Shown: positions 5,050-50,733, numbered from the stretch's first letter. The stretch: 64,000 nt of DNA from an uncultured delta proteobacterium (GCA_963782055.1 CAWAIF010000003.1:3008001-3072000); one strand, 5' to 3'. Notes: a model not told the origin generated them from the sequence alone. A program made the numbers and translations.

Positions 5050-5060
5050 GAGGATCGACC

Positions 5061-15270: not shown

Positions 15271-18200
15271 ATGCTTGCGGCTGCGTGGGGCGCCAGCGGG
15301 GCGCGCGCGATCGGAGGGTGTGGCGATGATCTTGCGCAGGGCAGGGCAGGGCAGGGCAGGGCAGGGCAGGGCAGGGCAGGGCAGGGCAGGGCAGGGCAGG
15401 CACTTCGTGTTGCCTCCGTGCTCTTCGCGCTCGGAATGGTGATGCTGGCGGCGTGCTCATCGCAGCGCGCCAGTGAGGATGTGGGCACGCAGGGCGAGCG
15501 CATCGTCGCCGGATACACGGACTCGGAGGATCTGTATCGCAACGCGAGCGTGAGGATCGGGGGTTGCAGCGGCACGCTGATCACCCCGATCCATGTGGTC
15601 ACCGCGAACCACTGCGTGACGGGGTTCGGGAGCCCTGGCGGATGGGGTCTCAACGGCAGCCCGATCGTGGGCTTCGGCACGTCCCCTGGGTCGACGTGGC
15701 TGGGCTCGGCCGCGCGCCAGATCCAGGTCGCTGCAAACGCGGTCCTGCATACCAGCCCGATCCAGAACGGCGCCGAGAAGACGGACCTCGCGATCGTCAC
15801 GCTCCAAGCCGCTCCGCGGCTGGGCTCCGCCGCAGGGACGTGGAACGTCAATCCGGTCCACCCGCTGGACCCGAACTACCCGTGTGCCACGACGATCAAC
15901 CCGCTGATCTCCGGGTTCGGGTGGACGAGCTGGCCCTGCGGCGCGAGTCCGGTGAACCGGCAGGCCAACGACCTCTTCGGCGTGAGCTGCCCCACGAACG
16001 ACATGTGCACGGCGAATTTCGGCGGTGGAGCGTACGCCGGCACACTCTTCGGCGACTCGGGCGGACCGCTGTTCATGCCTACGGGCAACCCGAACCAGCC
16101 CTACGTGCTCTGCGGTGCCACTGAAGGCGGCGACGCGACAGGCTGCGGGGTGACCCCGGTCCAGCAGCCCACGAGGTGCTATTGGACGCCGATGACGTAC
16201 ACGGACGGCACGTACGACAACGCCGCGTTCATCAAGAACGTCGCTTGGGATTTCAAGCACAACGGCTGGTACGGCGAGTGCGGCGGCCCCGACACCGATG
16301 GCGATGGCGTGGCCGACGCGTGCGACAACTGCCCCACCATCCGTAACGGGGCGCAGACCGACACCGACGACGACGGAGTGGGCGATGCGTGCGACAACTG
16401 CCCCCTGATTCCCGACGGCATCGAGCCAGACTCCAACTACCAGGCGGAGCTCGCCATCAATCCCCTGGGCAAGGACTGGCAGCCCACCGACGGGCGCGAG
16501 CGCGGCGACTCGTGGCTGACGGCGAACTACTCGGGCGACCGGTGCGATCTCCAGCCGCTGACGACGGCAGAGCCGACCGGGATGGACTACGCCTCCGGGC
16601 GTACCGTCCAGACCCTCCAGACCGAGTGCGGCCACACCGACCCTGTGCAGAGCGACGTGTCGCGCGGCAACGCCCTGGACGAAGAGAGCCATGTGGGCAA
16701 CCCGCTCTACTCCTACGAGACCGGCTGGACGCGTCCGATGCGCTGCCAGTGCCCGGCGGGCACGCCGCAAGCTCAGTGCGAACAGTTCTCCGGCTGTGGC
16801 CGCAACAACCTGGTGCAGAACCTCGATGTCGGTTGGCGCCCGATGGCCCTGGACGATTCGGCCGCGCACAGCACCATCTCGCAGAACTTCGTCATCGCAG
16901 GGCAGAATCAAACGGGTGTGGAGACGCAGTACTGGTCCATCAACGATCCCAAGCAGGCCGCCAAGCACCGGGGTTGGGGCTGGAAGTACTGGCTGGAGTC
17001 GGACATCTCGCTGCTGCCGCCGGCGTACGGCACGGTGCCCGTCTTCGACGGACTGGTCTGGAGCTGGGTGAAGACCTTCGCGCCGCTCGGGGGCCCTCCG
17101 GCCCCCTTCACCGATCCGCCGACCGGCACGACGAACGAGGAGATCCTCCGGCAGTACGTGGCCGCCAACCGACTCACCGTCACCGAGCAGGGCGAGACGT
17201 CGCGCACAATCCCCTGCAACGTCGGCTACGCGCCGCAGCTCTGGCCCTTCGACGGGAGCTGCCCCATGTGCGGGATGGCCTACTACGCGGTGGATCCCTC
17301 GGACCCCAACCCCGCCGCCACGGCGACCTTCCGCTACGCCGGCTTCGCGCCGAGCGATGCCTCGTCGAAGGTGGGCTCCGACGTCACAGCCGCATTGCTC
17401 AATCCGTCGCAGCGAGTGGTGATGGCGAGCGACGCTCCGGGGGTGTGGAAGGGCCTGGTCGCCGGCGTGGTCATCGACGCGTCCACACACCAGACGCTCG
17501 ACCGGGTACAGGTGGGCGCGAACGGGGGGGTCTCGCTGGTCCCGGCCTCCGACGTGACCGGTGCGGGCCCGCTGATCACCGCGGTCAGCGGCGTCCACCA
17601 GGAGGTCGCCTTCTTCGGAGAGACGAATCCGACGTCGGGCCAGCCGCTCAACTCGGTTCGTCTCTACGACTTCGACACGAACTCGTCGCGCACGGCCTCG
17701 CTGCTGGGGAGCGTGAAGCTGGCGAGCCCACAGGCGGCGACCTACCGCGTCGACGACGACAGCTACTACGTGCTCGACGCCACGACGTTCGGCGCTTTCA
17801 CCATCGCCAACGGCGACCTCGAGGCGGGCACGCTGTCCGGCTGGGCGCCGAGCGGCGCGTCGGCGACGATCACGTCGTCGGACGAGCACTCCGGCCGCTA
17901 CGCTGCGATGCTCGGCAGCACGTCGCCCACCAGCGGTGACAGCACGATCACCCAGACGTTCGACGCGCCGACGGGGGTCACGGGCATCTCCTTCTGGTAC
18001 AAGATGTACTGCCCGGACACGATCTACTACGACTGGGCCACCGCCACGCTCACCGACAACACTACGGGCGGCACAGTCTCCACGCTGCTCCCGAAGATCT
18101 GCACCACGGGCGGCTGGACGCAGGTGAGTGGTTCCGTCACCGCAGGCCACCACTACACGCTCGCCCTGACAAGCCATGACGACAACTGGCCGGGCGACGC

Positions 18201-18663
18201 GACGTACACCCTCTTCGACGACGTCGCGCTCACCGGCCCGGCCAGTATGCGGCTGGTTCGCATTTCCCGTGGGATGGTGGGAGAGATCCTGGGCGAGTGG
18301 CCGCGAAGCGGCGCCTTTTACACCTTCGGTCTAACGACAGGTGCCAACGGGAGCGTGGTGGTGTCCTGCTCCAACACGGGCACGCACGGCGTGGGGGAGC
18401 TCCTGCTCGACGCCTTCGACCCCCTGCACCCCATCACCGACTTCGTCGACGAGTCCCCCGCTCCCGGGCAGACCATCCCTCCGCGCGTGTTGCATCTACG
18501 GAGCTTCACCACCGGGTCGATGCCCCTGCTGGCACCTGCGCAGCGCACGCTGCGGGGACTGGAGGACTGGCCGCAGGGGGCGAGCGCACCGGAGCTGATC
18601 GCCTACGGGAGCGCTCCGGATCCGGCGGACCAGCCGCTCGGTGACCTCGCCGGGTGCTTCTGA
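15271..18663 (+). CDS. Large secreted/lipoprotein S1 (trypsin-like) protease with TSP3-type Ca-binding repeats and a carbohydrate-binding-like insert; start uncertain
   Basis: Triad motifs [44 protein letters not shown] repeat twice; lipobox-like LAAC. Confidence 0.85.
15336..15400 (+). repeat. Simple sequence repeat (GCAGG)13
   Basis: 65 nt of perfect pentanucleotide repeat in the 5' end of the protease gene. Confidence 0.97.
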
Positions 18664-20054
18664 TGCGCCGGCGGGGCTGGCTGCTCGCGGCGGGCTTGTC
18701 GATGCTGCCGCTCGGGGCGTGCTCGGCGTGCTCCCCCGCGACGACGGCGACGCCGGACGACGCGGGCCCCACCGGCAGCACGCGGCGCGACGCAGGTCTG
18801 CCGGATGGGGACGCGGGCCCGGCTCCGTTGCCCGACGCGTCGGACTTCGATGCAGGGTTCGACCCGTTCGTGGGCAACTGGGGCCCGATGCCCGGCGCGA
18901 GCTGCATCAAGATGGACTACGAGCCGGCGAAGGACATCACGCCCTTCACGTGGGACGCCTGCGCCAGCGCGCGGCCGGGGTGCGGGCGGCTCAAGGTCGA
19001 CTGGACGACCCAGCTCGGCGTGCAGCTGACATTCCCTCCCACCCATGTCGCCCGCGCCTTTTCGACGGGCACGTTCATCGCCTACGAGCGGCGGTTTCCG
19101 CGGCTGGGGAATCCCAATTTCAACGCCGCGACCATCAGCCTTGCCTCGGACATGGAGGGTCACGCGGCCTTTGCCCTTGGGTGGTTCGAGGATGATCCGT
19201 CCAAGTGCGGAGGTCGGGCTGCGGTGTCTGCCGCGCATGCGACGTTCGCCGGAGTGTCTTACGACAGTAGTATTGCATTCGGGGTGGCACCCTACTCCGC
19301 TCCCTCGAACGTGGTCGCACACTGGAAGACCCAGCAAGACCTCGGGATCGCGACCGGACCCTCCGGAGGTACGGTGCAGCGCTTCGTCACTAGCGGGACG
19401 GACATCGTCGCCGAGACGAGCGATCCCTTCAGCCTCGTCATCTACGATCCGTTGAAGGATCTCCTCACCCAGGTCATGGAAGGTCAGGGCCGGAGCCCCG
19501 CTGTCGACCCGGTGGGCGTGCAGGGCGGCGTGTTCGCCCTCGACTCGAGCAATACGCGCGGCCTCTACTACGTGGCGCTGGATGGAAGCAGCAGCAAGAT
19601 CTACGTCCCGGGTGCGGGCGATCACACTTTCTCCCTGGACGCCGACAACGCGAGCGGCGACAGCCTGGTGTGGCTCCAGGGCCAGGAGACCGGCTTCGAC
19701 TACCTCGACGTGAGCCTCTGGACGGCGCCCTTCGCCACGACGCCCGGCGCCCTTACGCCCCGCCGGGTCACGGGGATCCCCAGCATGTACAACTACGGCA
19801 GCTTCATGGTGGCCAACGCCGGGATGGCGCTGCTGGTGAGCAGCGCGACCACCGCGGAGCTGGTACGCCTGTCCGACGGTTGGGCCTGGTCCATTCCCGC
19901 CGAGGCGGGCGACACCTTCACCCGCGCGCTCTGGGTGGATGACACGGAGGTCTGGCTGGCGGTGGGGCTCACCAAGTACGGCGGATATCTGGGCAACAGC
20001 ATCCTGAAGCTCTCGCTCGCCGGCCTGGGTGCGCCAACCATCCCGCCGAGCTGA
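18663..20054 (+). CDS. Hypothetical lipoprotein, beta-rich
   Basis: ATG overlaps the upstream stop (TGATG); [20 protein letters not shown] signal/lipobox; DAG-rich linker. Confidence 0.75.
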   Translation: MRRRGWLLAAGLSMLPLGACSACSPATTATPDDAGPTGSTRRDAGLPDGDAGPAPLPDASDFDAGFDPFVGNWGPMPGASCIKMDYEPAKDITPFTWDACASARPGCGRLKVDWTTQLGVQLTFPPTHVARAFSTGTFIAYERRFPRLGNPNFNAATISLASDMEGHAAFALGWFEDDPSKCGGRAAVSAAHATFAGVSYDSSIAFGVAPYSAPSNVVAHWKTQQDLGIATGPSGGTVQRFVTSGTDIVAETSDPFSLVIYDPLKDLLTQVMEGQGRSPAVDPVGVQGGVFALDSSNTRGLYYVALDGSSSKIYVPGAGDHTFSLDADNASGDSLVWLQGQETGFDYLDVSLWTAPFATTPGALTPRRVTGIPSMYNYGSFMVANAGMALLVSSATTAELVRLSDGWAWSIPAEAGDTFTRALWVDDTEVWLAVGLTKYGGYLGNSILKLSLAGLGAPTIPPS

Positions 20055-38467: not shown

Positions 38468-39490
38468 CTACTTCTTGGGATGCGCGGTGAAGAAGTCCAG
38501 CACTTCCTGCCCCCACACGAAGGCCGTCGGGGGCTTGCAGGCGAGCTGGTCCCACACGGTGCTGGTGGCCGGCGTCGCGCCCGGCACGCAGTGCCCGGCG
38601 TTCGCCGCGAGCGCGCCCTGCGGGTCGGTGGTGTAGTCCTCGGTGAAGAAGTCGAGGGTCGTGCCGTCGCCCGCGGTGTAGCGATCGTGCGTGTAGTGAC
38701 CGTCACCGGCGATGGTCTGCTTGCTGGAGAGCGCCCACGCGGCGACGACCGCGTCGCGCTCGGCGGTGGAGCACGCGTAGGGCACCAGGGCGTCCTTCTG
38801 CGCGGCGAGGTAGAGCAGCGGCAGCTCGCGCGAGGGCTCGCCCTGCGCCGTGAAGGGGCAGCTCCCGTTGAAGTTGCCGTTCGGACACTTGTCGCTGCCG
38901 GCGAGCGCGGGCGCTGCGGAGGCGAAGAGGTCGGCGTGCTCGCACACCAGCCGCCAGGTCATGTACCCGCCCTGCGAGAGGCCGGTCACGTGGACGCGCG
39001 CGGTGTCGGCGCCCCAGACCTTCACCACCTGCATGAGCGCGTCGTAGACGGCGGCGTCGTCGGAGTCCTCCCACATCGGCCCGTAGGGCGAGCGGTCAGC
39101 CGGCGCGGTGGGCTGCACGACGACGTAGCCGGCCGCGCCGCCCTTCGCGCGCAGGTCGGTCATCGCGTCCTCCAGGTCGGCGTTCATGTACAGGCCGTGG
39201 ATGTCCAAAATGACGCCGCAGGCCGTCGTCGCGCACGCCGCCGGCGCGCTCACCGTGACCGAGACGCCCGGGCACGCGTAGGTGTGCGTCCCGGTCTCCC
39301 TCGCGGTGATGCACGAGGCGGTCGAGCCGTCGACGCCGGACTCGCCGGTGGTGCCCCCGTCGGCGGTCTGCGACGCGTCCCCACCGGCCGAGCCGTCCGG
39401 CCCGCCCCCCGTCGCGGGGGAGCTCCCGCACGCGGCGAGGACGAGGGCGCAGGCGATCGGCGGCGAGGCGTACTTCAAGGCGGACAGCAT
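38468..39490 (-). CDS. Lipoprotein esterase, LpqC/PHB-depolymerase-like alpha/beta hydrolase
   Basis: LAAC lipobox; [40 protein letters not shown]. Confidence 0.75.
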
Positions 39491-39553
39491 GGATCACATC
39501 CCTCTCGGGGTTGAATGGCCCGGCCCGCGGGGGCACCGGATGAGAGCGAACCG

Positions 39554-40012
39554 ATGAGACTTTCCCTCGTGCTCGCCGCGTCTCTCGTCCTGGCGCTGCC
39601 GGCCCTCGCCCGGGCCGACGGCGATCTGCGCGCCCGGACGGGCGCGACGCTCGCCACGATGAAGGGCGACGCCCAGCGCATCGCCTCCATGCTGGCGCAG
39701 GCGCGCCGCGGCGGCACGCCGGAGCAGCGCCGGTGCCTCGACCTCGCGCTCAGCGAGGCGGACGCCGCGGTGCGCACCGGGAGCGACGACGTGACGGCCG
39801 CGCGCGCCGCGGCGAAGGCCCGCGACAAGGCCGCCGCCTCCCGGGCGATGGCGAGCCTCGCGGTGAAGCGCGCCGCCGCTCGCGCGGCGGTCTTCGCCGC
39901 CGACGCCTGCGTCGCGCCGCCGGGCGCCGTCGTGGGGCCGCGCGACGCGACGGTGGTGCGCGTCTTCGTGGACCCGAACCTCCCGCCCGACTCCGCCCTC
40001 TTCGGTCACTGA
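39554..40012 (+). CDS. Secreted helical hypothetical protein
   Basis: MRLSLVLAASLVLALPALARA signal peptide; Ala-rich helices with two Cys. Confidence 0.6.
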   Translation: MRLSLVLAASLVLALPALARADGDLRARTGATLATMKGDAQRIASMLAQARRGGTPEQRRCLDLALSEADAAVRTGSDDVTAARAAAKARDKAAASRAMASLAVKRAAARAAVFAADACVAPPGAVVGPRDATVVRVFVDPNLPPDSALFGH

Positions 40013-40090
40013 CGGCTCCTGTCGATTCTCGCCCACCGCGACCTCGGTCGGCTTGGTGATGTCGACAATCGCCACGCCCCGCCTCCTGCC

Positions 40091-40651
40091 TCAGCGCCCG
40101 CCGGAGCGGCGCGCGCGCTTCTTGCCGCCCTCGACGCTCTTCTTCAGCTCGGCCAGCTCGCGCCGCAGCTCGGCGATGTCCGACTGCGACGAGGGCGCGT
40201 CCGGCACGGGGGAGGGAGGCGGCTGCGGGTTCCACGGCACCGGCGCGCGATCCACCCCGGACGACCCGAGCAGCAGCCGCGCGAGCGCGCCGCCCACGTC
40301 GAAGGGCATCTGCGCGAAGGGGCTCACGCTCGCCGCGCGCTGCTTGACGGCGAAGTACACCTCCAGCGCCCAGGTCATGTAGCGGCCGTAGAACTCGGCC
40401 AGCGCGTCGTCCCCCATCCGCACGAGCTGCAGCAGGAGCGGCACCGGCAGGAGGTGGGCGCGGTTGCCCTCGATGAGGAGCTGCACCAGCGTCGGCTGGG
40501 TGAGGTCGTCCTCCGTCTTGGCGTCCAGCACGCGCACGTCGCGGCCGCCGCGCACGCGCTCGGCGAGCTCCTCCATGGTGATGTACCGGCTCTCCTCCGT
40601 GTCGTAGAGGCGGCGGTTCGGGTATTTCTTGACGGTCAGAACGGGGCCCAC
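40091..40651 (-). CDS. phaR: Polyhydroxyalkanoate synthesis repressor, PhaR-like
   Basis: VKKYPNRRLYDTEESRYIT...DAKTEDDLT..TL.Q DNA-binding domain; LPVPLLLQLVR; GTG 40651 after an AAGGA RBS. Confidence 0.9.
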   Translation of the reverse strand: MGPVLTVKKYPNRRLYDTEESRYITMEELAERVRGGRDVRVLDAKTEDDLTQPTLVQLLIEGNRAHLLPVPLLLQLVRMGDDALAEFYGRYMTWALEVYFAVKQRAASVSPFAQMPFDVGGALARLLLGSSGVDRAPVPWNPQPPPSPVPDAPSSQSDIAELRRELAELKKSVEGGKKRARRSGGR

Positions 40652-40674
40652 GGCGGTCCTTGTAGCGCGCGGCT

Positions 40675-40747
40675 GGTTGCACTGCAACAAATCCTATGTT
40701 GCGCCGCACCAATTTTCCTTGACGACCTCCGGGGCCGCGGGTAGGTT
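40675..40747. promoter_or_regulatory. Two PhaR-type boxes plus the sigma70 promoter of the PHA operon
   Basis: GGTTGCACTGCAACA 40675-40689; TGTTGCGCCGCACCA 40697-40711; TTGACG(40719-40724)-N17-TAGGTT(40742-40747). Confidence 0.8.
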
Positions 40748-40795
40748 CCGCGTCGCCTCGCGGGCGGTGCCGCGTCCGGGGGCGGAGGAGTCGTC

Positions 40796-41746
40796 ATGCA
40801 ACACGCGCGGATGGGGGCCTTGGTCGCGGTGCTCGGCGCCGCATGCGTGGTCGCCGCGGGGTGCTCCAGCGCGCCGGCGGTCACGTGCAACGCGGGCGCG
40901 GACTGCGCGTCCGGCGTCTGCAACTCCGACGGCCGGTGCGCCCCGGTCACGAGCCCGGGCGACGACGCAGGCAACCCTGGCGACGACGGTGGCGCCGGGG
41001 ACGCCTCGCCGGGCGGCGACGCCGCGTCGGACGCGAAGGTCCCCGGCTGCACGCCCAACCAGGACGGCACCATCGAGGCCGCGGAGGTCCCGCTCCAGGC
41101 CGGGCTGCACGCGACCTTCCGCACCGCCACCAGCGCCACGGTGGACACCGCCGGCAAGGCGGGGCAGGGCGGCGCGCGCGACTGGGACTTCTCCGGCGCG
41201 CTGTCCGGCGATCAGGACGTCGGCGTGGATACCCTCTCCCCCGGTGGCGCGTGGTACGCGCAGAGCTTTTCCGGCGCGACGTACGCGGCCCGCCTCTCGT
41301 CGACCTCCGACCTGCTCGGCGTCTTTCGCGTGGGCGGCAACCAGCTCGCCCTGCAGGGCGTCGTCTCCCCGGCGAGCGGCGTGACCCAGACCAACGTGGC
41401 CTACCAGCCGGAGGCCGTGGCGATGCAGTTCCCCCTCAAGATGGGCAGCGCGTGGAACAGCACGTCCACCGTCTCCGGCACGGCGAACGGCGTCGCCGTC
41501 TACTACACCGAGGCGTACGACTCGCAGGTCGACGCCCACGGCAGCCTGAAGGTCCCCTTTGGCACCTTCCAGGTGCTGCGCGTGCGCACGGTGCTCACGC
41601 GCACGGTCGGCGTGGTGGCCACCGTCGCGCGCACCTTCGCCTTCGTCACCGAGTGCTTCGGCACCGTGGCCACCGTCACCTCGCAGCCCAACGAGCCCAA
41701 CGTGGAGTTCACGAGCGCCGCGGAGATCCAGCGGCTCGCGCCATGA
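40796..41746 (+). CDS. Beta-rich lipoprotein (paralogue of 44297-45145)
   Basis: GGAGGAG RBS; AAGC lipobox; CTPNQDGTI, WDFSG, WYAQSFSGAT, F..ECFG, FTSAAEIQRL. Confidence 0.82.
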   Translation: MQHARMGALVAVLGAACVVAAGCSSAPAVTCNAGADCASGVCNSDGRCAPVTSPGDDAGNPGDDGGAGDASPGGDAASDAKVPGCTPNQDGTIEAAEVPLQAGLHATFRTATSATVDTAGKAGQGGARDWDFSGALSGDQDVGVDTLSPGGAWYAQSFSGATYAARLSSTSDLLGVFRVGGNQLALQGVVSPASGVTQTNVAYQPEAVAMQFPLKMGSAWNSTSTVSGTANGVAVYYTEAYDSQVDAHGSLKVPFGTFQVLRVRTVLTRTVGVVATVARTFAFVTECFGTVATVTSQPNEPNVEFTSAAEIQRLAP

Positions 41747-42747
41747 TCCGCGGCAGGCTCCTGCTCATCCTCATCATGCTGATGCCGCTCCTCGCAGGCT
41801 GCTTCTCCTTCCACACCGGCGCGATGCCCGGCGAACCGAAGGACGCCACCTTCGCGCGCGTCCACGGCGTGCGCGTCCGCTACGTCGACCGCGGCACCGG
41901 CCCCGCGGTCGTGCTCGTCCACGGCTTCGCCTCCTCGCTCGACGCGTGGAAGGACCTGATGCCGGTGCTGGAGGCGAAGGGCTTCCGCGTCATCGCGCTC
42001 GACCTCAAGGGCTTCGGCTGGACCGACAGGCCCCAGGGCGACTACTCCCCGGTGGCCCAGGCGCGCCTGGTCTTCGGGTTGCTCGACCAGCGGGGCGTCC
42101 GGCGCGCGGCGGTGGTCGCGCACTCCTGGGGCTCCTCGGTCGCCCTCGCTGCTGCACTGCAACATCCGGAGCGCATCACGCGCCTCGCCCTCTACGACGC
42201 GTGGGTCTACGAGGAGCAGCTCCCCACCTTCTTCCACTGGGCGCGCGCCGATGGCCTGGGCGAGATGATGTTCGCCCTCTGGTACAAGGAGCGCCCGGGC
42301 GACAAGATGGCGCAGGCCTTCTACGATCCGAGCCTCATCACCGAGGCGTTCGTCGAGCAGGTGGAGGCCGCCCTCGACCGGCCGGGCACCGTCGCCGCGG
42401 CGCTCGCGGCGGTGCGCGGGCAGCGCTACGCCGAGGTCCAGCGGCGCTACCACACCATCAAGCAGCCGACGCTGCTGCTCTGGGGGCGAGAGGACCGCGT
42501 CACCTCCCTGCGCTACGGCGAGCGGCTGGAGAGCGAGCTGCCCGACGCGCACCTCGTCGTCTACCCGCGCTGCGGCCACTTCCCGATGATCGAGGCGAAG
42601 GCGGCGTCGACGCGCGACGTGGTGGACTTCCTCGCCGCCGACCTGCCGGCGCGGACCGCCGCGGCGTCTCCGCCGCCCGCGCCTCCCCCGCCCGCGGCGA
42701 CGGGTGCGGCCGCCTCCCCGACCGCCGGCGCGACGGACGGCGAGTGA
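41743..42747 (+). CDS. Lipoprotein alpha/beta hydrolase (lipase/esterase)
   Basis: ATGA overlap; LAGC lipobox; VHGF, DLKGFG, AHSWGS (Ser), WGRED (Asp), GHFP (His). Confidence 0.88.
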   Translation: MIRGRLLLILIMLMPLLAGCFSFHTGAMPGEPKDATFARVHGVRVRYVDRGTGPAVVLVHGFASSLDAWKDLMPVLEAKGFRVIALDLKGFGWTDRPQGDYSPVAQARLVFGLLDQRGVRRAAVVAHSWGSSVALAAALQHPERITRLALYDAWVYEEQLPTFFHWARADGLGEMMFALWYKERPGDKMAQAFYDPSLITEAFVEQVEAALDRPGTVAAALAAVRGQRYAEVQRRYHTIKQPTLLLWGREDRVTSLRYGERLESELPDAHLVVYPRCGHFPMIEAKAASTRDVVDFLAADLPARTAAASPPPAPPPPAATGAAASPTAGATDGE

Positions 42748-44297
42748 AGCGCGCGGTCGTGCTCCTCGGCGCCATGGTGGCGATCGCCTCCGCGATCGTC
42801 CCGGCGGAGGCGCGCGCCACCGGCTTCACCGACATCGGCCAGGACATCACCCCCCGCGACAAGTTCGAGGCGAAGCTGGACGGCTACCTGCGCGCGCGCG
42901 GGGAGGGCCTCTACAACCTGGACCTGGACCGGGGGCTGCTGCCCGACGGTCAGCCGCTGTTCCCGGTGCCCCTCGGCAACCCGAAGGGGCAGTGGCTCAC
43001 CCACGCCGACATGCGCCTCCGCACCGACCTCTCGGTGTACGCGCCGGGCGGCGGCGTCGCGGTGAAGGTGCGGCTGGACACGCTGGACAACGAGGCGCTC
43101 GGCTCCATGCCGGAGGGCCTGCCGTACGCCTCGCTCACGCAGCGGCCGGAGGGCGCCCTCTTCTCCCTGCGCCGCGCGTACGGCGAGGCGCTCACGCCCT
43201 TCGGCCTCATCGCCGTCGGCCGGATGGGCAACGACTGGGGCCTGGGCATGTACGAGAACGGAGGCGACTGCATCGACTGCGACGCCGGCGACTCGGTCGA
43301 CCGCGTGGCCTTCCTCACGCCGCTCTTCGGTCACGTCTTCGCGGTGGCCTACGACTACTCCGCGACGCTCGCGCTGGCGCCGCGCGCCGACAACCGCACC
43401 ATCTCCATCGCGCCCTTCTCCAACGTGCGCTCGGTCACCTTCGCCGGGCTGCACTTCGAGACCGACCTGGCGCGGGAGCGGCGCCGGAAGGCGGGCAAGA
43501 CGACGCTGGAGTACGGGCTGCTCGGGTCGTACCGCTGGCAGGACGGCGACGTGCCGGCCGCGTACCTGCCCACCCCGGCGAACGGCCCGGTGGCCCTGGA
43601 CCCCGCGCAGGTCATGGGGCGCGGCGCGAAGGGCTGGGTGGTCGATGGATGGGCGCGCCTGACGCACCCTGCGTTTCACGTGGCCGCGGAGGCGGCGTAC
43701 GCGGGCGGCCAGGTCGACGACGCGTCGCTCGTCCCCGGCGTCCTCTCGCGGCGGCCCATCCGGTCGACCCAGCTCGGCCTCGCGCTGGAGTCGGAGGTGG
43801 GCGGGCCGACCTCGCCCTTCGGCGTCGGCCTGGACGCCGGCTACGCCTCCGGCGACCCGGGCGCGACCCTCGGCGCGGTGCCGGTGCCGCCCCCCGGCGA
43901 TCGCATCGACTCCTTCCGCTTCCACCCCGACTATCACATCGACCGCATCCTCTTCCGGGAGATCGTGGGCACCGTCACCGGCGCCTTCTACCTCCGGCCG
44001 CACGCGCGCGCGCGGCTCTTCAAGGTCGCGACCGGCGAGCTGCGCGCCGACGTGGCGGTCGTCGCCTCCTTCGCCGCCGCGGACGACTGGTCCCCCAGCG
44101 GTGACCGCGGCCTGGGCGTGGAGGTGGACCCCGGCCTCACCTACCACAGCCGCGACGGCTTCTTCGTCGCCCTGGACTACGGCGTGCTCTTCCCGCTCTC
44201 CGGCATGGATAACCCGGCCGCCGGGCTGAAGGCGCAGCTCGCCGAGTCCATCCGCCTGCGCCTCGCCTTCCTCTTCGGCGGGGGGAGGAGCTCCTGA
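42744..44297 (+). CDS. Outer-membrane beta-barrel protein, TIGR04551-like
   Basis: GTGA overlap; signal peptide; GYLRAR, GRMGNDWGLGM...GDCIDCD.GD.VDR, FRFHPDYHIDRILFREI; alternating strands ending LRLAFLF. Confidence 0.78.
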   Translation: MKRAVVLLGAMVAIASAIVPAEARATGFTDIGQDITPRDKFEAKLDGYLRARGEGLYNLDLDRGLLPDGQPLFPVPLGNPKGQWLTHADMRLRTDLSVYAPGGGVAVKVRLDTLDNEALGSMPEGLPYASLTQRPEGALFSLRRAYGEALTPFGLIAVGRMGNDWGLGMYENGGDCIDCDAGDSVDRVAFLTPLFGHVFAVAYDYSATLALAPRADNRTISIAPFSNVRSVTFAGLHFETDLARERRRKAGKTTLEYGLLGSYRWQDGDVPAAYLPTPANGPVALDPAQVMGRGAKGWVVDGWARLTHPAFHVAAEAAYAGGQVDDASLVPGVLSRRPIRSTQLGLALESEVGGPTSPFGVGLDAGYASGDPGATLGAVPVPPPGDRIDSFRFHPDYHIDRILFREIVGTVTGAFYLRPHARARLFKVATGELRADVAVVASFAAADDWSPSGDRGLGVEVDPGLTYHSRDGFFVALDYGVLFPLSGMDNPAAGLKAQLAESIRLRLAFLFGGGRSS

Positions 44298-45145
44298 TGT
44301 TGCATCGCACCATTGCGCTCGCGCTGCTCGCCCTGGCTGGCGTCGCCGTCGGCTGCGGGGACAACCGCACGCCGCAGCCGACACACCCCGACTACGACGC
44401 CGGCGGCCTGCCGCAGCTCTCCTGCATCCCCAACCTGGACGGCCGCATCGACGCCGACGAGCTCGGCCCGGCGCTCGGCGTGCCGGTGCACTACCTGGTG
44501 TCGCCCTCCGGCAAGACGCGCGCGGTGGACCTCGCGGGGAGCGTCGACGCCCAGGGGCACACGGTGTGGGACTTCGGCGCGGACTACGCCGACAATCAGG
44601 TGGCGACGATCGAGGCCTCCTCGGTCTCCGGCAAGTGGTACGCGGGCAGCTTCCCCGGGGCGACCTTCGTCGCGCCGGTGGACGCGGGCGACACCCTCGA
44701 GGGCGCCTACACCTACTCGCAGGCGGGGGTCACCCTGCGCGGCATCGCCTCGCGCGATCCCGACGGCCCCGGCGGCAAGACGCTCCTCGTCTACGACCAG
44801 CCGGTCACCGTCTACCGCTTCCCCATCGTGGTCGGCGACTCCTACGTCTCGGTGGGCAACGTCACCGGCGGCACGCTACGAGGTCTGCCCTACGCCGGCA
44901 AGGACACCTACCAGGTCTCGGTGGACGGCTCCGGCGAGGTGACCCTCCACGACTACGACTTCACCCAGGCGCTGCGCGTGCGCACCACCGCGACGGTCGA
45001 GCCCTCCGCGGGCGCGGCCGTCGTCACGCGGCAGACGTCCTTCCTCTTCGAGTGCTTCGGCGAGATCGTCCGCGCGACGAGCCAGCCGGGGGAGACGAGC
45101 GACGACTTCACCACCGCCGCCGAGCTGCGGCGGCTGGGGCAGTGA
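44297..45145 (+). CDS. Beta-rich lipoprotein (paralogue of 40796-41746)
   Basis: TGATG overlap; AVGC lipobox; [41 protein letters not shown]. Confidence 0.82.
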
Positions 45146-45168
45146 CCAGGCAGTGGACGGAGGCAGCC

Positions 45169-45441
45169 ATGTTCGATCAGTTCAAGAAGGGGTTCGACGC
45201 GTGGGAGATCGCCACGGCCAAGGTCGTGGAGGCGTGGATGAAGAGCCCGCTGGTGCTCAAGCCGTCCGGCGCCATGCTGACGAGCCTGATGCGCATGAAG
45301 GCGGCGAGCGACAGCGCCGCGGCGATGTGGTGGGCCTCGCTCGGCCTGCCCACCAAGCGCGATCAGGAGCGCACGCTCCACGCGCTGCACAAGCTGGAGA
45401 GCCGGCTCAACAATCTCGAGGACAAGCTCGAGGACAGGTGA
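45169..45441 (+). CDS. phaE: Miniature PhaE-like PHA synthase accessory subunit (90 aa)
   Basis: [35 protein letters not shown] matches the PhaE C-terminal LPT coiled-coil pattern; lies in the phaC operon. Confidence 0.7.
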
Positions 45442-45467
45442 CCCGCGCGCGGGTGGGAGAAGAGAAG

Positions 45468-47171
45468 ATGGACGTCTCCAGGTACATGGATCTCCAGATC
45501 GCGCCGCGCGCGGTCTTCGACGCGCTCGAGGAGCGCAAGGACCGGCCGCGCTTCTTCCTGCGCGACGCCGGAGGCAGGTGGTCGCCGGTCACGTGGCAGG
45601 ACTTCGCCGACCAGGTGCGCGACGCCGCGCTCTTGCTGGCGAGCGCCGGGCTGAAGAGCGGCGACCGCGCCGCGGTCTTCGCGCCCAACCGGGTGGAGTG
45701 GGCCGCCGCCGCGCTCGGCATCCAGGCCGCCGGCGGCGTGATGGTGCCCGTCTATGCGGCGAGCACCGCCGAGCAGCTCGCCTACGTGCTCGGCCACTCC
45801 GACGCGCGCGTCCTCTTCGTCGACACGCCGGCGCTCCTCTCCCGCGTGCTGGAGGCGTGGCCGGGGCTGCCGTCGCTGGAGCGCGTGGTCGTGCTGTCCG
45901 ACGGCGTGGACCCGAAGCGCGTCGCGCAGAAGCTCCGGGAGGCGGGCAAGCCCGCGCCCGCCGACGCGCAGATCGAGGAGCGCGTGCTCGGCTGGTCCGC
46001 CGCGCGCGCCATCGGCGCCGCGCGCCACGCCGCCGACCCCGGCGAGCTCGCGCGCCGGATGGACGCGGTGACGCTCGATCAGATCGGCCTGATGCTCTAC
46101 ACGAGCGGCACCACCGGCAACCCGAAGGGCGTGCCGCTGTCGCACGCCAACGTGGCGCACAACGGTCGGGACTGGCTGACGTGCAACGCGCCGCTCCTGG
46201 AGGAGGGCGCGGTGGACGTGCTCTGGCTGCCCATGAGCCACATCTTCGGCTTCGGAGAGATGTGTCTGGGCAACACGCTGGGGTGGGTCTCCTACATGAG
46301 CGACCCCCGCGAGGTGCTCGATCGCCTGCCGGAGGTGCGGCCGCAGGTCTTCATGAGCGTGCCCTCGCACTGGGAGAAGATCGCCTCCGGCGCGCTCGGC
46401 GAGCCCGACGCGAGCAAGCGCAAGGCCGCCATCACCGAGGCGACCGGCGGCCGCCTGCGCTTCTGCCTCTCCGGCGGCGCGGGCCTCAAGCGCCAGGTGA
46501 AGGAGGTCTTCCACGAGAGCGGCGTGCTCATCATCGAGGGCTACGGGCTGACCGAGACGTCCCCCACGCTCACCCTCAACCGCCCCGACGCCTACCGCTT
46601 CGACAGCGTGGGCAAGCCGCTCCCCAGCGTGGAGCTGAAGCTCGCCGAGGACGGGGAGATCCTCGCCCGCGGCCCCAACGTCTTCGGCGGGTACCACAAG
46701 GACGAGGCGGCGACGCGCGAGATCTTCACCGCCGACGGCTGGCTGAAGACGGGCGACGTCGGCCGGTGGACGGAGGACGGCTTTTTGCAGATCGTCGACC
46801 GCAAGAAGGACATCCTGGTCACCGCCGGCGGCAAGAACGTGCCGCCCGCCAACATCGAGATGCGCTTCGCCGGGGACCCGCTCATCGCTCACGTGGTGGT
46901 CTACGGCGACGGGGAGAAGTACCTGGTCGCCGGCCTCTGGCCGAACGAGGACGCCGCCCGCGCGATGAGCGAGGACGAGGTGAAGAAGGCCCTCGGCGAG
47001 CGGGTGGAGCGCGTCAACCGCGAGCTGCCCAGCTACGAGACCATCAAGCGCTTCGCCGTCGTGCGCACGCCGCTCAGCGTGGAGGCGGGCACGCTGACCG
47101 CGTCGCTCAAGGTGCGCCGCAAGAAGATCTACGAGACCTTCCGCGACGTCTTCCGCGGCCTGTACGCGTGA
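45468..47171 (+). CDS. Long-chain fatty acid-CoA ligase (FadD/ACSL-like)
   Basis: [49 protein letters not shown]. Confidence 0.93.
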
Positions 47172-47176
47172 GCGCG

Positions 47177-48241
47177 ATGGAAGCGCGGCGCGGCATCAAG
47201 CGGCTCTTCAACCTGGCGGCGCTCCCGGCGCGCGGCAAGCCGCTCGTCGGGCGGACGCCGGCGGACGTCGTCTTCTCGGAGAACAAGTGGCGCCTGCTCC
47301 GCTACCGCGCGCGGGCGGAGGGGCTCGCCCACCCGCTGCCGGTGCTGCTGGTGCCCTCCCTCATCAACCGCCACTACGTCCTCGACCTCATGCCGGGCAA
47401 GAGCTTCGTGCAATCCCTGGTCGCGCAGGGCTACGACGTCTACTGCATCGACTGGGGCACGCCGGGGGACGAGGACCGCTACGTCACCTTCGACGACGTG
47501 TGCGACGGCGTCATCGGCCGCGCCATCCGCCGGGCGGCGCGCACCTCCGGCGCGCCCAAGGTGCACCTGCTCGGCTACTGCCTGGGCGGGACGCTCACCG
47601 CCATCCATGCTGCGGTGCACGAGGAGCGCATCGCCTCGATGGTCGTGCTCGCGGCGCCGGTGCGCTTCGACCAGGACGGCCTGCTGGAGGCCTGGACGCG
47701 CACCCCCACCTTCGACGTGCGCGCGCTCGTGCGCGGGGCGGGCAACGTGCCGTGGCAGCTCATGCAGGGCGCCTTCCAGATGCTGCGCCCGACGCTCGGC
47801 CTGTCGAAGGCGGTGCACATGGTGGACCGCGCGTGGGACGACGAGTTCCTGGACGGCTTCTTCGCGCTGGAGACGTGGGGCAACGACAACGTGTCCTTCC
47901 CCGGTGAGTGCTACGTCCGCTACATCGAGGAGCTGTACCGCGGCGACGCGCTGGCGAAGGGGACCTTCACCCTGAGCGGCAAGCCGGCGCGGCTGGAGAA
48001 CCTCACCTGCCCGCTGCTGGTGGTGTCCTTCCAGCACGACAACATCGTGCCGGAGGGCGCGGCGGCGGCGCTGGTGGAGATGGCCGGGTCGAAGGACAAG
48101 CGGCACCTGCGACTGCCCGGTGGGCACGTGGGGGCGGTGGTGTCGCGGTCGGCGAGCCAGCGGCTCTGGCCGGTGATCGAGGGGTTCTTCGCGGAGCACG
48201 AGGGGGCGCGGGGTTGCGTCCCGAACGCCACCTCCTCATGA
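47177..48241 (+). CDS. phaC: Class III-like PHA synthase PhaC (alternative start GTG 47168)
   Basis: GRTPADVV, PVLLVPSLINRHYVLDL, IDWG, GYCLGG (catalytic Cys), HDNIV (Asp), GGHVG (His); about 355 aa. Confidence 0.9.
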   Translation: MEARRGIKRLFNLAALPARGKPLVGRTPADVVFSENKWRLLRYRARAEGLAHPLPVLLVPSLINRHYVLDLMPGKSFVQSLVAQGYDVYCIDWGTPGDEDRYVTFDDVCDGVIGRAIRRAARTSGAPKVHLLGYCLGGTLTAIHAAVHEERIASMVVLAAPVRFDQDGLLEAWTRTPTFDVRALVRGAGNVPWQLMQGAFQMLRPTLGLSKAVHMVDRAWDDEFLDGFFALETWGNDNVSFPGECYVRYIEELYRGDALAKGTFTLSGKPARLENLTCPLLVVSFQHDNIVPEGAAAALVEMAGSKDKRHLRLPGGHVGAVVSRSASQRLWPVIEGFFAEHEGARGCVPNATSS

Positions 48242-48248
48242 TGCCCGG

Positions 48249-49526
48249 GTGCTGCTCCGCGTCGTGCTGGTGATCCCTCTCTGCGCCTGCCTCGCGGGTT
48301 GCCCGAAGCATTCGCTGGCTGCCGCGAAGACGGACGGCGGCGGCCTCGCAGACGCGGGGATGGACGCGCCGACGGGGTCCGCACGAGCCGCCGCATCGAG
48401 CGCAGAGAGCTCGCCCCGGCCGAAGGCCCCGACCGTTGCGAAGGCCCCGCTGTCGCCGGCCGAGCGCAAGGCCGTGCTCGCGGCGCTCGGCGCCGGCCGC
48501 AAGAAGTCACTGGCGAAGGACTACGAGGGGGCGCTCGTCGCCTACGACCGCGCGCTCGCGATCGCGCCCGACGACGCGACGGTGCTGGCCGAGGTCGGCT
48601 GGGCCGCCCTTCAATCGGGTGACCTGGCGCGCGCCGAGGACGCCAACAGACGCGCCCTCCTCCACGCGCTCGACCCGAAGCTGCGCGCGCAGATCCTCTA
48701 CAACGCGGGTCGCGTCGCCGAGGCGAAGTCCGACCCGGCGGCGGCGCGGACGGCCTACGCCGCGTCGCTCGCGCTGCGCGAGAACGCGGCGGTCCGGCGG
48801 CGCCTCGCGGCCGTGTCGGCGTCGAAGACCGGGTCGGGCGAGGCATCGCCGTCCCTTCCGTGTGCGGCCGGGGCCGCCACGTCGAAGGCGCTCTGCGACT
48901 GCTTGATGGCGAAAAAGGATGATCTCGAGGCGATGACCCGCCTTCCGGGGGACGCGCCGACGTGCACCACCGTCCCCGCGTCCCTCGGGACCCCGCGGCT
49001 CGCGGTGATTCGCTGGGGCGCAGCGAGCGGCGGCGAGAGCCGCTACCTCCTCGCGGCGCGCGATGGCTCGACGCTCCGACCCGTCGCCGATCTCGGCAGG
49101 GACTACGAGCCGGGTGTGTTCGGCGTCACCGACACGGCGACGATCGAGGGCGGCGTGACGCGCACGCTCGGCGCCCGCACGGTGCATGTCGTCCACTCCG
49201 CGCAGCACGACGTCGACACCAACATGGCCGGCCTGGAGGCGTGCTTCCACGACGTCGAGCGCGAGACGGTCTGCGCGCTCGCGGGCGCCGGCGGCACGAC
49301 GCGCTGCCAGACGGTCGACGTGAAGACGACGTCCGGCTGCGGGCCGGGCGTCGTCGACCCCGACCTCGACCCCGACACGAAGGCCGCCCTCGACGAGAGG
49401 AAGAAGGACTGGGGCACCAAGACCTCCGGGCGCGCGTGGTCGCTCGACGCCGACGGGGCCCTCGTGGTCAAGGAGGCCGGAGCTGGAGGCAAGACCGTGT
49501 CGAAGACCCCGCTCTTCGATCGGTAG
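48249..49526 (+). CDS. TPR-containing Cys-rich lipoprotein
   Basis: LAGC lipobox; TPR helices (AEVGWAALQSGD, ILYNAGRVAE). Confidence 0.72.
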   Translation: MLLRVVLVIPLCACLAGCPKHSLAAAKTDGGGLADAGMDAPTGSARAAASSAESSPRPKAPTVAKAPLSPAERKAVLAALGAGRKKSLAKDYEGALVAYDRALAIAPDDATVLAEVGWAALQSGDLARAEDANRRALLHALDPKLRAQILYNAGRVAEAKSDPAAARTAYAASLALRENAAVRRRLAAVSASKTGSGEASPSLPCAAGAATSKALCDCLMAKKDDLEAMTRLPGDAPTCTTVPASLGTPRLAVIRWGAASGGESRYLLAARDGSTLRPVADLGRDYEPGVFGVTDTATIEGGVTRTLGARTVHVVHSAQHDVDTNMAGLEACFHDVERETVCALAGAGGTTRCQTVDVKTTSGCGPGVVDPDLDPDTKAALDERKKDWGTKTSGRAWSLDADGALVVKEAGAGGKTVSKTPLFDR

Positions 49527-49575
49527 CGTGGACACGACGCGCTGCCCGATACGCGTCGGCTCGTTGCCCGCGCCC

Positions 49576-49604
49576 CGCTCCTCTCTCCACCAGAGAGAGG
49601 AGCG
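49576..49604. terminator. Hairpin between convergent genes (possible bidirectional terminator or REP-like element)
   Basis: CGCTCCTCTCTC-N5-GAGAGAGGAGCG forms a perfect 12-bp stem; no U-tract. Confidence 0.5.
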
Positions 49605-49620
49605 CCCGGGGGCGTGAGCC

Positions 49621-49869
49621 TCAGCCTGCCTTCTTCATCGCCTCCATCGTCAGCTTGCGCCACTCGGCGGCGAGCTGGCCGGCGTAGGCGAAGGACTCGC
49701 GGGTGAGCCTGGAGACCTCGTCGACCATGGTCGCGGCCTGCTCCACGCCCTGGCCCTCCAGCCTGGCCCACTCCTCGGTGGCTGCCTGGAAGCGAGTCAT
49801 GTTGTCCTCGGTCGCCTTCTTCCAGAAGTCGATCCACTGTTGCGGTGCAGCAAAGACCTGGTTGGACAT
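49621..49869 (-). CDS. phaP: Small phasin-like PHA granule protein
   Basis: 82-aa amphipathic helical protein, AGGAGG RBS, PhaR-type boxes upstream and inside, next to phaC. Confidence 0.7.
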   Translation of the reverse strand: MSNQVFAAPQQWIDFWKKATEDNMTRFQAATEEWARLEGQGVEQAATMVDEVSRLTRESFAYAGQLAAEWRKLTMEAMKKAG

Positions 49870-49891
49870 GGTGTCCTCCTTTTCTCGCCGG

Positions 49892-49941
49892 AAGATAAGC
49901 TCGGCGGCGGAGGCGTCAAGGGATTTTGTTGCGTTGCAACA
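49892..49941 (-). promoter_or_regulatory. Phasin promoter with a PhaR-type box
   Basis: Minus strand TTGACG(49919-49914)-N16-TATCTT(49897-49892); palindrome TGTTGC-GTT-GCAACA at 49927-49941. Confidence 0.78.
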
Positions 49942-49962
49942 TGGGCGGCGCGGGGGGCGGGG

Positions 49963-50733
49963 TCACTCCCGGCGCCAGGCGGGCTTGCGGCGCGCGAAGT
50001 AGGCCTCCACCGCCTCCACGTGGTCGGGGCTCGACCAGGTCCGCACGAAGGCCTCCCGCTCCAGCGGGCGGACGGCGGCGTAGAGGGCCTGGCCCGCGGC
50101 GCGCAGCAGCGCCTTGGTCTCCCGGACGGCGTCGGGGGCGCCGGCGGCGATCTCGGCGCACCATGCGAGCGCCGTGACCATGGCCTCGCCGGGCGCGGTG
50201 CACAGATCCACCAGGCCGAGGGTCCGCGCCTCGGCGCCGGCCACCTCCGCGGCGGTGTAGAGGAGGCGCGCCGCGGCCGACGGGCCGACCAGCGCGACCA
50301 GCCGCGGCAGCAATCCCCACGCCGTCGTCACCCCCATCCGCGCCTGCTTGAAGCTGATGCGCGCCGTCTCGTCGGCCACGCGCAGGTCGCACGCGAGGGC
50401 GAGCTCGGCGCCGCCGCCGAAGGCGACGCCGCAGACCACCGCCACGACGGGGAAGGGGAGCTCGCCCAGCCGGCGGCAGACGTGCTCCCCGGCGTCGGAG
50501 AGGGCCGCGGCGTCGTCGGGGGAGTGGCGGCCGCGCAGCTCGCGCAGGTCCCCGCCGGAGGCGAAGTCGCCGCCCGCGCCGGTGAGGATCGCCGCGCGCA
50601 CGCCGGGGTCGTCCGCGGCGGCATCCATGGCGGCGTTCAGCGCGCCGAGCGTCGCGGCGTCGAGCGCGTTCTTCGTCGCCGGACGGTCGAGCGTCCAGAC
50701 GGCGACGGCGCCGTCACGCTCCTCGCGCAGCAT
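49963..50733 (-). CDS. Enoyl-CoA hydratase/isomerase (crotonase) family protein
   Basis: LDRPATKNAL, FASGGDL, AFGGGAELALACDLR. Confidence 0.9.
   Translation of the reverse strand: MLREERDGAVAVWTLDRPATKNALDAATLGALNAAMDAAADDPGVRAAILTGAGGDFASGGDLRELRGRHSPDDAAALSDAGEHVCRRLGELPFPVVAVVCGVAFGGGAELALACDLRVADETARISFKQARMGVTTAWGLLPRLVALVGPSAAARLLYTAAEVAGAEARTLGLVDLCTAPGEAMVTALAWCAEIAAGAPDAVRETKALLRAAGQALYAAVRPLEREAFVRTWSSPDHVEAVEAYFARRKPAWRRE

Follow-up and report, generated by a model that had tools for sequence, protein, structure and literature searches.

Why should a gene for polyhydroxyalkanoate (PHA) synthase share an operon with genes for an outer-membrane channel? The question is raised by positions 40,091–49,941 of a 64,000-nucleotide stretch of DNA from an uncultured delta proteobacterium (GCA_963782055.1 CAWAIF010000003.1:3008001-3072000); this whole stretch is referred to as the window, and all coordinates are positions within it unless another source is named. 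Here, genes for two lipoproteins (LipA and LipB), a lipoprotein hydrolase and a beta-barrel are followed by genes for a short PhaE-like protein (mini-PhaE), an acyl-coenzyme A (CoA) ligase and the synthase PhaC. A sequence-only reading had proposed that the operon hydrolyses an external ester or polyester at the cell surface, imports the (hydroxy)acids and polymerises them. We propose that the operon encodes an envelope-spanning PHA salvage system, in which hydroxybutyrate oligomers would be imported, hydrolysed in the periplasm, activated with CoA and re-polymerised, and we put the probability of this reading at roughly 0.58. The scavenging direction and a PHA-type substrate found genuine support in the comparison with relatives, through synteny, a gene fusion and shared regulatory boxes, together with the surface hydrolases or polyhydroxybutyrate (PHB) depolymerases, symporters, hydroxybutyrate-CoA enzymes (two loci) and synthase-free Bacteroidales versions described below.

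The envelope genes and the PHA synthase form a conserved operon

Seven co-directional genes lie on the plus strand, exactly where the sequence-only reading had placed them. The genes for LipA, the hydrolase, the barrel and LipB overlap at their stop and start codons (ATGA, GTGA, TGATG), and the gaps downstream are below 30 bp (23 before mini-phaE, 26 before the ligase gene and 5 before phaC). The two lipoproteins share 33% identity (E 2e-31) and are paralogues, as had been noted. The divergent regulator PhaR matches PF07879 at 85.4 bits, above the 25-bit cut-off, and scores 89 bits against TIGR01848, under the cut-off of that family.

Related loci were chosen for their similarity in barrel or lipoprotein sequence, without regard to phaC. 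After two barrel-only distant matches and one duplicate had been dropped, 70 barrel-bearing loci were available, 45 of them with at least 6 kb on each side of the barrel (full-flank loci); near-kin redundancy was retained, and kin are not independent in any of the locus and genome counts. The operon is conserved and real: the hydrolase and the lipoproteins were present in all 45 full-flank loci, PhaC in 44, the ligase in 43 and phaR in 40, which bears out the expectation that barrel and lipoprotein genes accompany phaC in relatives. The linkage persists in rearranged loci and at 30–45% identity. The ligase is swapped between subfamilies yet retained, with a PRK06187/PRK06839-type enzyme (about 30% identity) taking its place in divergent loci, and in most loci of this kind (type 1) its gene sits between the two synthase subunit genes. 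Among 301 Myxococcota genomes, the lipoprotein family was found in 76, mostly as a pair, and 75 of these 76 carried a PhaC-like gene, compared with 155 of 301 overall, which is more than expected by chance.

PhaR-type boxes mark the operon and its relatives

Palindromes of the type TGTTGC-N3-GCAACA recur along the locus (Table 1). Four of the genome's six best copies fall here (about 3,100 TGC-N3-GCA sites in the 7.58-Mb genome), a count that is partly circular because the scoring was derived from these very sites; the box at the phasin-like gene is one of the two top-scoring boxes in the genome. The other two of the six, C3:5297454 (at an efflux gene) and C3:3256702 (within a nuo gene), appear unrelated. 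Boxes occurred at 111 per Mb in 71 homologous loci, compared with a density of 3 per Mb for the genome of the window, and most of those in the loci were at most 150 bp from the starts of phaR, phasin, lipA or transporter genes. A TTGAC-like −35 hexamer was found 5–7 nt behind 52 of the 137 boxes in these loci, and the same layout is present at both the operon promoter and the phasin promoter of the window, the latter being the sole promoter-like site returned by a scan of 39400–50100 (0.1 expected). Some boxes are written into signal-peptide codons, namely those for MLHRT of the window LipB and for LHCS/LQCS of LipA in Kofleriaceae (L011–L034).

The box core matches the phaP1 boxes reported for Bradyrhizobium diazoefficiens (PMC10888616). 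For Sinorhizobium meliloti, it is reported that PhaR boxes flank the −35 element, that PHB sequesters PhaR and that PhaR represses phasins and depolymerases (PMC12542648). The box layout, read in the light of PhaR behaviour in S. meliloti, suggests by analogy that expression of the envelope genes probably rises once the cell contains PHA. A second regulator with a PHB_acc_N domain (45% over 66 aa) is encoded at G000:C3:46167-46835, beside an extracytoplasmic function sigma/anti-sigma pair and with no boxes nearby.

A phasin had been expected after phaC. A small gene is indeed present, but it lies on the opposite strand, is separated from phaC by a co-directional lipoprotein gene and matches no family. 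It has 28 homologues adjoining phaR or phaC, and only 1 of 21 homologues compared with phasin profiles matched Phasin_2, at E 0.046; we call it phasin-like only on its size, position and PhaR-type box.

A second, sequence-unrelated module fills the same slot

PhaC loci were also examined in genomes without type-1 lipoproteins, and a second block (type 2) was found there, consisting of a ligase, a small lipoprotein, a barrel-like protein of 490–540 aa and a lipoprotein hydrolase. It adjoins phaE-phaC, phaR, a phasin-like gene and the same boxes (51 per Mb). The type-2 loci are L077, L081, L083, L084, L087–L106 and L107–L170, and they often hold two tandem PhaC genes. The barrels of the two types have no profile similarity (hhalign probability 0.4%, with a 4-sequence profile). 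The type-2 protein is described as barrel-like from its sequence pattern and from its family matches: its Atlas cluster carries Alginate_exp on 17% of members, and PF13372 was found on 5 of the 120 homologues listed. In a 58-row tree built by a quick method, the hydrolases of the two types fall into separate clades, which need not be sisters.

Type 2 occurs in 39 of the 301 Myxococcota genomes, of which four also match the type-1 lipoprotein profile, two of them weakly. The two types are thus nearly exclusive and fill the same slot. Either module is present in 111 of 301 genomes, and PhaC in 109 of these 111. Within the loci, PhaC was found in 14 of the 24 type-2 genome loci examined; of 31 metagenome loci spanning 10 kb or more, 20 had it.

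Depolymerases, transporters and catabolic enzymes accompany the modules

In relatives, 16 of 24 type-2 loci are closed by a hydrolase of 550–620 aa with a GxSxG motif and a MYXO-CTERM-like tail (recognised by profile in 6 of 20 and judged by eye in the remainder), a signal reported to route proteins to the cell surface (PMC11980579). This surface hydrolase is also present in four to five type-1 loci. Its family occurs in 49 genomes, all of them module-bearing (34 with type 2 and 15 with type 1 only), and in none of the 190 others. Against the PhaZ7-type family NF050060, 13 of 20 members gave weak matches, the best at 28 of 450 bits. In three of the five type-2 genomes without a surface hydrolase (G105, G110 and G115), an extracellular short-chain-length PHA depolymerase of type 1 is encoded directly upstream of the barrel, with 278.6, 262.3 and 185.1 bits against an NF050058 cut-off of 150. 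In metagenome locus L131, a depolymerase that narrowly exceeds the cut-off is encoded downstream of the module; in L163, BLAST alone identified a comparable gene, on the opposite strand. In addition, G244, which bears a type-1 module, has a separate cluster (L173:6062-13840). Two of its products score strongly as extracellular PHB depolymerases and end in MYXO-CTERM-like tails; it also encodes an uncharacterised lipoprotein hydrolase, a KASIII-like protein and a barrel-like protein of a third, unrelated kind. A lipoprotein of L173 that was suspected to be PhaZ7-like gave no match in the Protein Data Bank (PDB).

Of 71 type-1 loci, 21 have transporters of the SSF or MFS families (SHS- and ACS-like), in many cases preceded by a box. 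The type-1 operon L066 encodes a 4-hydroxybutyryl-CoA dehydratase (1u8v, E 2.8e-167) together with a ligase, an MFS transporter and a PhaC-like protein. Low-GC type-2 loci of Bacteroidales type (L129, L133, L149 and L155, labelled from named barrel homologues) have no phaC in the stretch examined; they hold a thiolase, a PhaB/FabG-like reductase, an SSF symporter, one or two KASIII-like genes, one of which exceeds the PRK06840 cut-off, and either a ligase or an enzyme of the 4-hydroxybutyrate CoA-transferase family. The Bacteroidales-type operon is a candidate hydroxybutyrate-oligomer catabolic locus. As a speculation, the KASIII-like enzyme of type-2 loci might split oligomer-CoA thiolytically. 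A link between the PRK06839/PRK06840 pair and phaZ of Bacillus was set aside, since PMC4908106 does not describe the neighbourhood of that gene.

Taken together, the surface hydrolases and depolymerases, the transporters, the C4 hydroxyacid enzymes and the synthase-free Bacteroidales loci argue for the uptake of hydroxybutyrate esters rather than for export.

The envelope proteins suggest a periplasmic hydrolase at a porin-like barrel

The operon hydrolase has conserved HSWG, Asp and His motifs, corresponding to a Ser-Asp-His triad with a lipase box. It has no close solved relative, its best matches being meta-cleavage hydrolases (E ~1e-25), and it scored under the cut-off of every PhaZ family (best, 69 of 300 bits for NF050089 and 36 of 251 for TIGR02240). 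In 18 of 29 loci, mostly from Kofleriaceae, and additionally in L049, L052 and L065, hydrolase and barrel form a single reading frame, joined by a Gly/Pro/Ser linker with no second signal peptide. The N-termini of porins normally face the periplasm. Because the hydrolase is lipid-anchored and its fusion partner is the barrel N-terminus, the surface location proposed by the sequence-only reading was not borne out; the enzyme is probably periplasmic, working at the inner mouth of the barrel.

The barrel had been called TIGR04551-like. It shows full-length similarity to this family but scores 277.8 bits, below the cut-off of 300; at another site in the genome, next to a response regulator gene, lies a member above the cut-off (533 bits). 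The AlphaFold2 model of the barrel (pLDDT 89) has 18 long strands, and its best fold matches are AlgE (Z 25.8, root-mean-square deviation 4.9, 362 aligned residues), Campylobacter MOMP (Z 25.3) and OccK2 (Z 23.6); carboxylate importers of the Occ family match at Z 22–24, and identity across the AlgE, MOMP and Occ matches is 9–13%. The fold does not give the direction of transport.

LipA and LipB matched no Pfam or NCBIfam family, and 125 LipB homologues had no Pfam family in common. Profiles of the barrel and LipB returned nothing useful from PDB sequences, LipB having only an EF-hand-like lanmodulin match at E 0.02, and Foldseek gave no match for LipB at E ≤ 0.001. The LipB model (AlphaFold2, pLDDT 93.5) is an open beta-sheet, whose best fold match is the uncharacterised Parabacteroides lipoprotein BDI_3050 (4fvs, Z 9.4, root-mean-square deviation 4.2, 174 aligned residues), followed by YmcC (Z 7.1) and weak LolA/vitellogenin-like matches (Z about 5–6). 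When the barrel and LipB were predicted as a complex, the score was 0.56 against 0.00 for the best control, which lends slight support to the proposed barrel–lipoprotein complex, as passing scores of up to 0.60 were also obtained for 18 of 157 solved complexes and for both mismatches that passed. In this prediction the pLDDT of the partners was at least 83, and runs shared at least 70% of contacts. In some divergent loci, LipA has three such lipoprotein domains; homologues of 875–980 aa with repeated domains occur in L037, L038, L040 and L043.

The synthase, its partners and the supply of monomers

The catalytic residues of PhaC (C135, D288 and H317, with the Cys in GxCxG) were invariant in 19 aligned sequences. 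TIGR01836 is its best family, although the score of 265.6 bits is under the cut-off of 365.3, and it is the sole full PhaC-like gene product of this genome at E < 1e-40. We therefore describe it as a class III-like PHA synthase, predicted to polymerise (R)-3-hydroxyacyl-CoA. No full-length PhaE was found in the operon; the 90-aa mini-PhaE spans positions 232–310 of the 311 in PF09712, at 21 against 25.7 bits, and is replaced by a long N-terminal PhaC extension in some divergent loci. The best NCBIfam match of the ligase is FadD11 (253 bits, under the cut-off), its best PDB matches are the A domains of carboxylic acid reductases, and it has no characterised close relative.

The absence of phaA, phaB and phaJ had been taken to favour scavenging. 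None was recognised when 41 of the 57 called open reading frames of the window were scanned against Pfam and the rest judged by eye, but this argument is weak because candidate genes lie at other sites in the genome. One encodes a MaoC hydratase and adjoins a thiolase gene, another encodes an SDR fused to MaoC, and the PRK08217-like reductase that adjoins phaC in 17 of 70 related loci has an orthologue in this genome with 70% identity. No PhaB above the cut-off was found in the genome. De novo monomer supply is thus possible in this organism. In many relatives (L004, L008, L012, L020 and L055–L069), a second intact PhaC, 40–47% identical, is encoded behind the phasin-like gene, and the PRK08217-like short-chain dehydrogenase/reductase (SDR) that follows it may be an unrecognised PhaB substitute.

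Features of the window

The genes, boxes and promoters of the locus are collected in Table 1. Four neighbours, namely the tetratricopeptide-repeat (TPR) lipoprotein, the crotonase, a 165-aa secreted protein and the lipoprotein esterase, were considered as parts of the module and excluded because each is kept in only one or two of the 70 related loci.

Table 1. Genes, putative promoters and PhaR-type boxes at the PHA locus (positions in the 64,000-nucleotide window)
Feature	Position	Strand	Remarks
Lipoprotein esterase	38468-39490	-	600 bp from phaR; weak match to extracellular short-chain-length PHA depolymerase
phaR-like regulator, PHB_acc_N DNA-binding domain	40091-40651	-	GTG start behind AAGGA
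Two PhaR-type palindromes (TGTTGC-N3-GCAACA type)	40674-40690, 40696-40712		among top 6 genomic sites
Putative operon promoter TTGACG-17-TAGGTT	40719-40747	+	6 nt behind second box; read from sequence
LipA lipoprotein	40796-41746	+	lipobox VAAGC; Cys-rich N-terminal segment; LipB paralogue
Lipoprotein alpha/beta serine hydrolase	41743-42747	+	lipobox LAGC; PF00561 E 2e-34
PhaR-type box within hydrolase gene	42149
Outer-membrane beta-barrel, TIGR04551 paralogue	42744-44297	+	18 strands, AlgE/MOMP/Occ-like fold (predicted)
LipB lipoprotein	44297-45145	+	open beta-sheet fold (predicted)
PhaR-type box over LipB start codon	44297-44313
Mini-PhaE, 90 aa	45169-45441	+	PF09712 E 2e-4
Acyl-CoA ligase, long-chain/FadD11-like	45468-47171	+	PF00501 E 1.7e-71
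Class III-like PHA synthase PhaC	47177-48241	+	TIGR01836 265.6 bits; catalytic triad intact
TPR lipoprotein, 425 aa	48249-49526	+	7 bp after phaC; not conserved in related loci
Phasin-like helical protein, 82 aa	49621-49869	-	assigned by context
PhaR-type box within phasin-like gene	49837
Perfect PhaR-type box (49926-49942), then putative promoter TTGACG-16-TATCTT (49919-49892)	49892-49942	-	for phasin-like gene
Crotonase	49963-50733	-	upstream of phasin-like gene; not conserved

Outside this locus, the window encodes topoisomerase VI B and A subunits, an archaeal-type type IIB topoisomerase (3100–6188, plus strand), and a large secreted trypsin-domain protein of 1081 aa followed by a lipoprotein (15418–20051, plus strand), with a SUKH/SMI1-domain protein upstream of it (13295–15061, minus strand).

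Discussion

In the salvage reading, PHA outside the cell, whether it stems from lysed prey, dead cells or siblings, would first be broken into oligomers by a depolymerase, secreted or at the surface, which is encoded in the operon in many relatives and for this genome would have to be encoded elsewhere. The oligomers would pass through the 18-stranded barrel with the help of the lipoproteins and be cut to (hydroxy)acids by the barrel-tethered, probably periplasmic hydrolase. An inner-membrane symporter would carry these into the cell, the ligase would form CoA thioesters, and PhaC with mini-PhaE would re-polymerise them, while PhaR boxes beside the −35 elements would couple the operon to intracellular PHA.

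Several observations weigh against this reading. The top match of the barrel is an exporter, AlgE, about 2 Z ahead of the Occ importers, and the barrel columns conserved at 90% or more are balanced in charge, with 17 Arg and 18 Asp. The ligase is of the long-chain fatty-acid type, and conventional monomer supply exists, since a reductase (17 of 70 loci) or a MaoC hydratase (3 of 70) adjoins phaC. The surface hydrolase of relatives matches PhaZ7 (E ~1e-4) less well than it matches Bacillus lipase A (E 1e-13); because it groups with Lipase_2 enzymes and is closer to Bacillus lipases, it is not diagnostic of the substrate. The genome of the window has neither the surface hydrolase family nor type-2 genes, and its locus has no symporter; the nearby esterase, with 66 bits against a PHA depolymerase cut-off of 150, is a weak candidate and recurs in just 1 of 70 loci, and one lipoprotein of a depolymerase family above the cut-off (160 bits) is encoded elsewhere, with no box. 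Depolymerases above the cut-off were found in 21 of 57 type-1 genomes without a surface hydrolase against 24 of 190 module-free genomes, in 3 of 19 type-1 genomes with a surface hydrolase and in 9 of 39 type-2 genomes, so their association with the modules is an enrichment, not a rule. Most of the depolymerase evidence comes from type 2 and would apply to the window only by analogy.

The strongest competitor, though an unlikely one, is lipid scavenging, in which lipases at the surface and in the periplasm would free fatty acids from prey lipids, the barrel and cup-shaped lipid-binding lipoproteins would import them, the ligase would activate them, and beta-oxidation with MaoC or a FabG-like reductase would feed (R)-3-hydroxyacyl-CoA to PhaC. 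It would account for the best ligase matches (long-chain fatty-acid ligases), the best solved relatives of the surface hydrolase (lipases), the weak LolA/vitellogenin likeness of LipB, and the MaoC gene after the ligase gene in three loci or the SDR gene beside the second phaC in 16–17, both of which this genome has elsewhere. It does not account for true PHB depolymerases in the surface slot of three genomes and two metagenome loci, or for C4 hydroxyacid enzymes in two operons, and the top folds of the barrel are 18-stranded AlgE/Occ channels rather than FadL.

It is improbable that import occurs and ends in catabolism, with hydroxybutyrate degraded through acetoacetyl-CoA or crotonyl-CoA and phaC co-located only through shared PhaR control. 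Mini-phaE, the ligase gene and phaC are contiguous, with gaps of 5–26 bp, and the ligase gene is placed between the synthase subunits in most type-1 loci; many genomes also keep a second phaC beside a reductase, as if the operon phaC were separately fed. A mode of export analogous to synthase-dependent polysaccharide secretion, in which PhaC would make a short polyester that leaves through the AlgE-like barrel and that the tethered hydrolase trims, is more doubtful still. AlgE is the top fold match, and LipB resembles YmcC (GfcB), a capsule-export lipoprotein; however, the operon has no inner-membrane translocase, PhaC has no predicted signal peptide, the analogous module persists with symporters and catabolic enzymes where its locus has no synthase, and surface depolymerases accompany the module. 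That the envelope genes are an unrelated module merely neighbouring the PHA genes is hardly credible: in one full-flank type-1 locus (L074) the ligase is indeed missing and the sole PhaC-like gene is very distant, but the linkage withstands rearrangement and 30–45% divergence, boxes lie at the module's own promoter and within its genes, and two unrelated modules show the same linkage.

The operon also differs from the systems it most resembles. It shares with class III loci (phaE-phaC, PhaR and phasin) a PhaC of about 350 aa with Cys-Asp-His, a PhaE-related partner, the PhaR DNA-binding domain and GC-N3-GC boxes beside the −35; unlike them, it has a PhaE shortened to 90 aa, its phaE and phaC are separated by a CoA ligase gene, and its operon extends to four envelope genes. 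Neither phaA nor phaB is present in the locus, and the NCBIfam scores all fall below the cut-offs. Among extracellular PHA degraders (type-1 short-chain-length depolymerases, PhaZ7 and PhaZBd of Bdellovibrio), the likeness is that relatives place such enzymes or distant homologues beside the barrel. Bdellovibrio is reported to hydrolyse prey PHA to oligomers and to make no PHA under the conditions tested (PMC4834554, for which a correction of strain identity exists). For such degraders, neither a dedicated outer-membrane channel nor a linked synthase came up in our literature search. With AlgE and the OprD/Occ channels the predicted barrel shares the 18-stranded architecture (Z 22–26), but at 10–13% identity, with no polysaccharide genes around it and with a hydrolase fused to it in many genomes. 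Its similarity to TIGR04551 is full-length, but it is below the cut-off, and the true member lies elsewhere.

A surface hydrolase, a channel with a lipoprotein, a periplasmic hydrolase, a symporter and an activating step are the logic of starch-utilisation-type polysaccharide-utilisation loci (Sus/PUL) and of FadL-FadD vectorial acylation, and the module shares it; it differs in that the operon has no TonB-dependent SusC/SusD or FadL match (Pfam and NCBIfam), the apparent substrate is a polyester, and the end point would be re-polymerisation. In operation the module would resemble a combination of polymer-utilisation locus and vectorial acylation, but it belongs to neither family.

Reports have noted PHA genes in most activated-sludge Myxococcota as new in 2024 (PMC11821767) and predicted PHA depolymerases encoded by Myxococcota (10.1101/2020.05.08.085522); an annotation as lipase is reported to predict PHA activity neither way (PMC13101487). 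In a literature search that covered few subscription papers and no supplements, no description was found of the TIGR04551 barrel family or of a cluster of PHA synthase, barrel and lipoproteins. The passage of PHA breakdown products across the outer membrane appears to be undescribed, and the modules supply candidate channel, lipoprotein, hydrolase and ligase families in 111 of 301 (more than one-third) of the sampled Myxococcota genomes, as well as in Bacteroidales.

A bolder proposal, which we hold tentatively and at somewhat below even odds, is that predatory myxobacteria possess a dedicated locus for polyester utilisation, put together on at least two occasions with unrelated sets of barrels and lipoproteins, by which the PHA of lysed prey would be stripped at the surface, its oligomers channelled inwards and the units re-polymerised into the predator's own granules for the cost of one ligation. 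Storage polymer would then be handed up the food chain. The salvage reading itself would give a first function to a TIGR04551-related barrel and add a family of surface-anchored polyester hydrolases, and the direct recycling of monomer to polymer would be of interest for bioplastic upcycling. It would also provide a mechanism by which predators in soils and activated sludge could take over the carbon stored by their prey.

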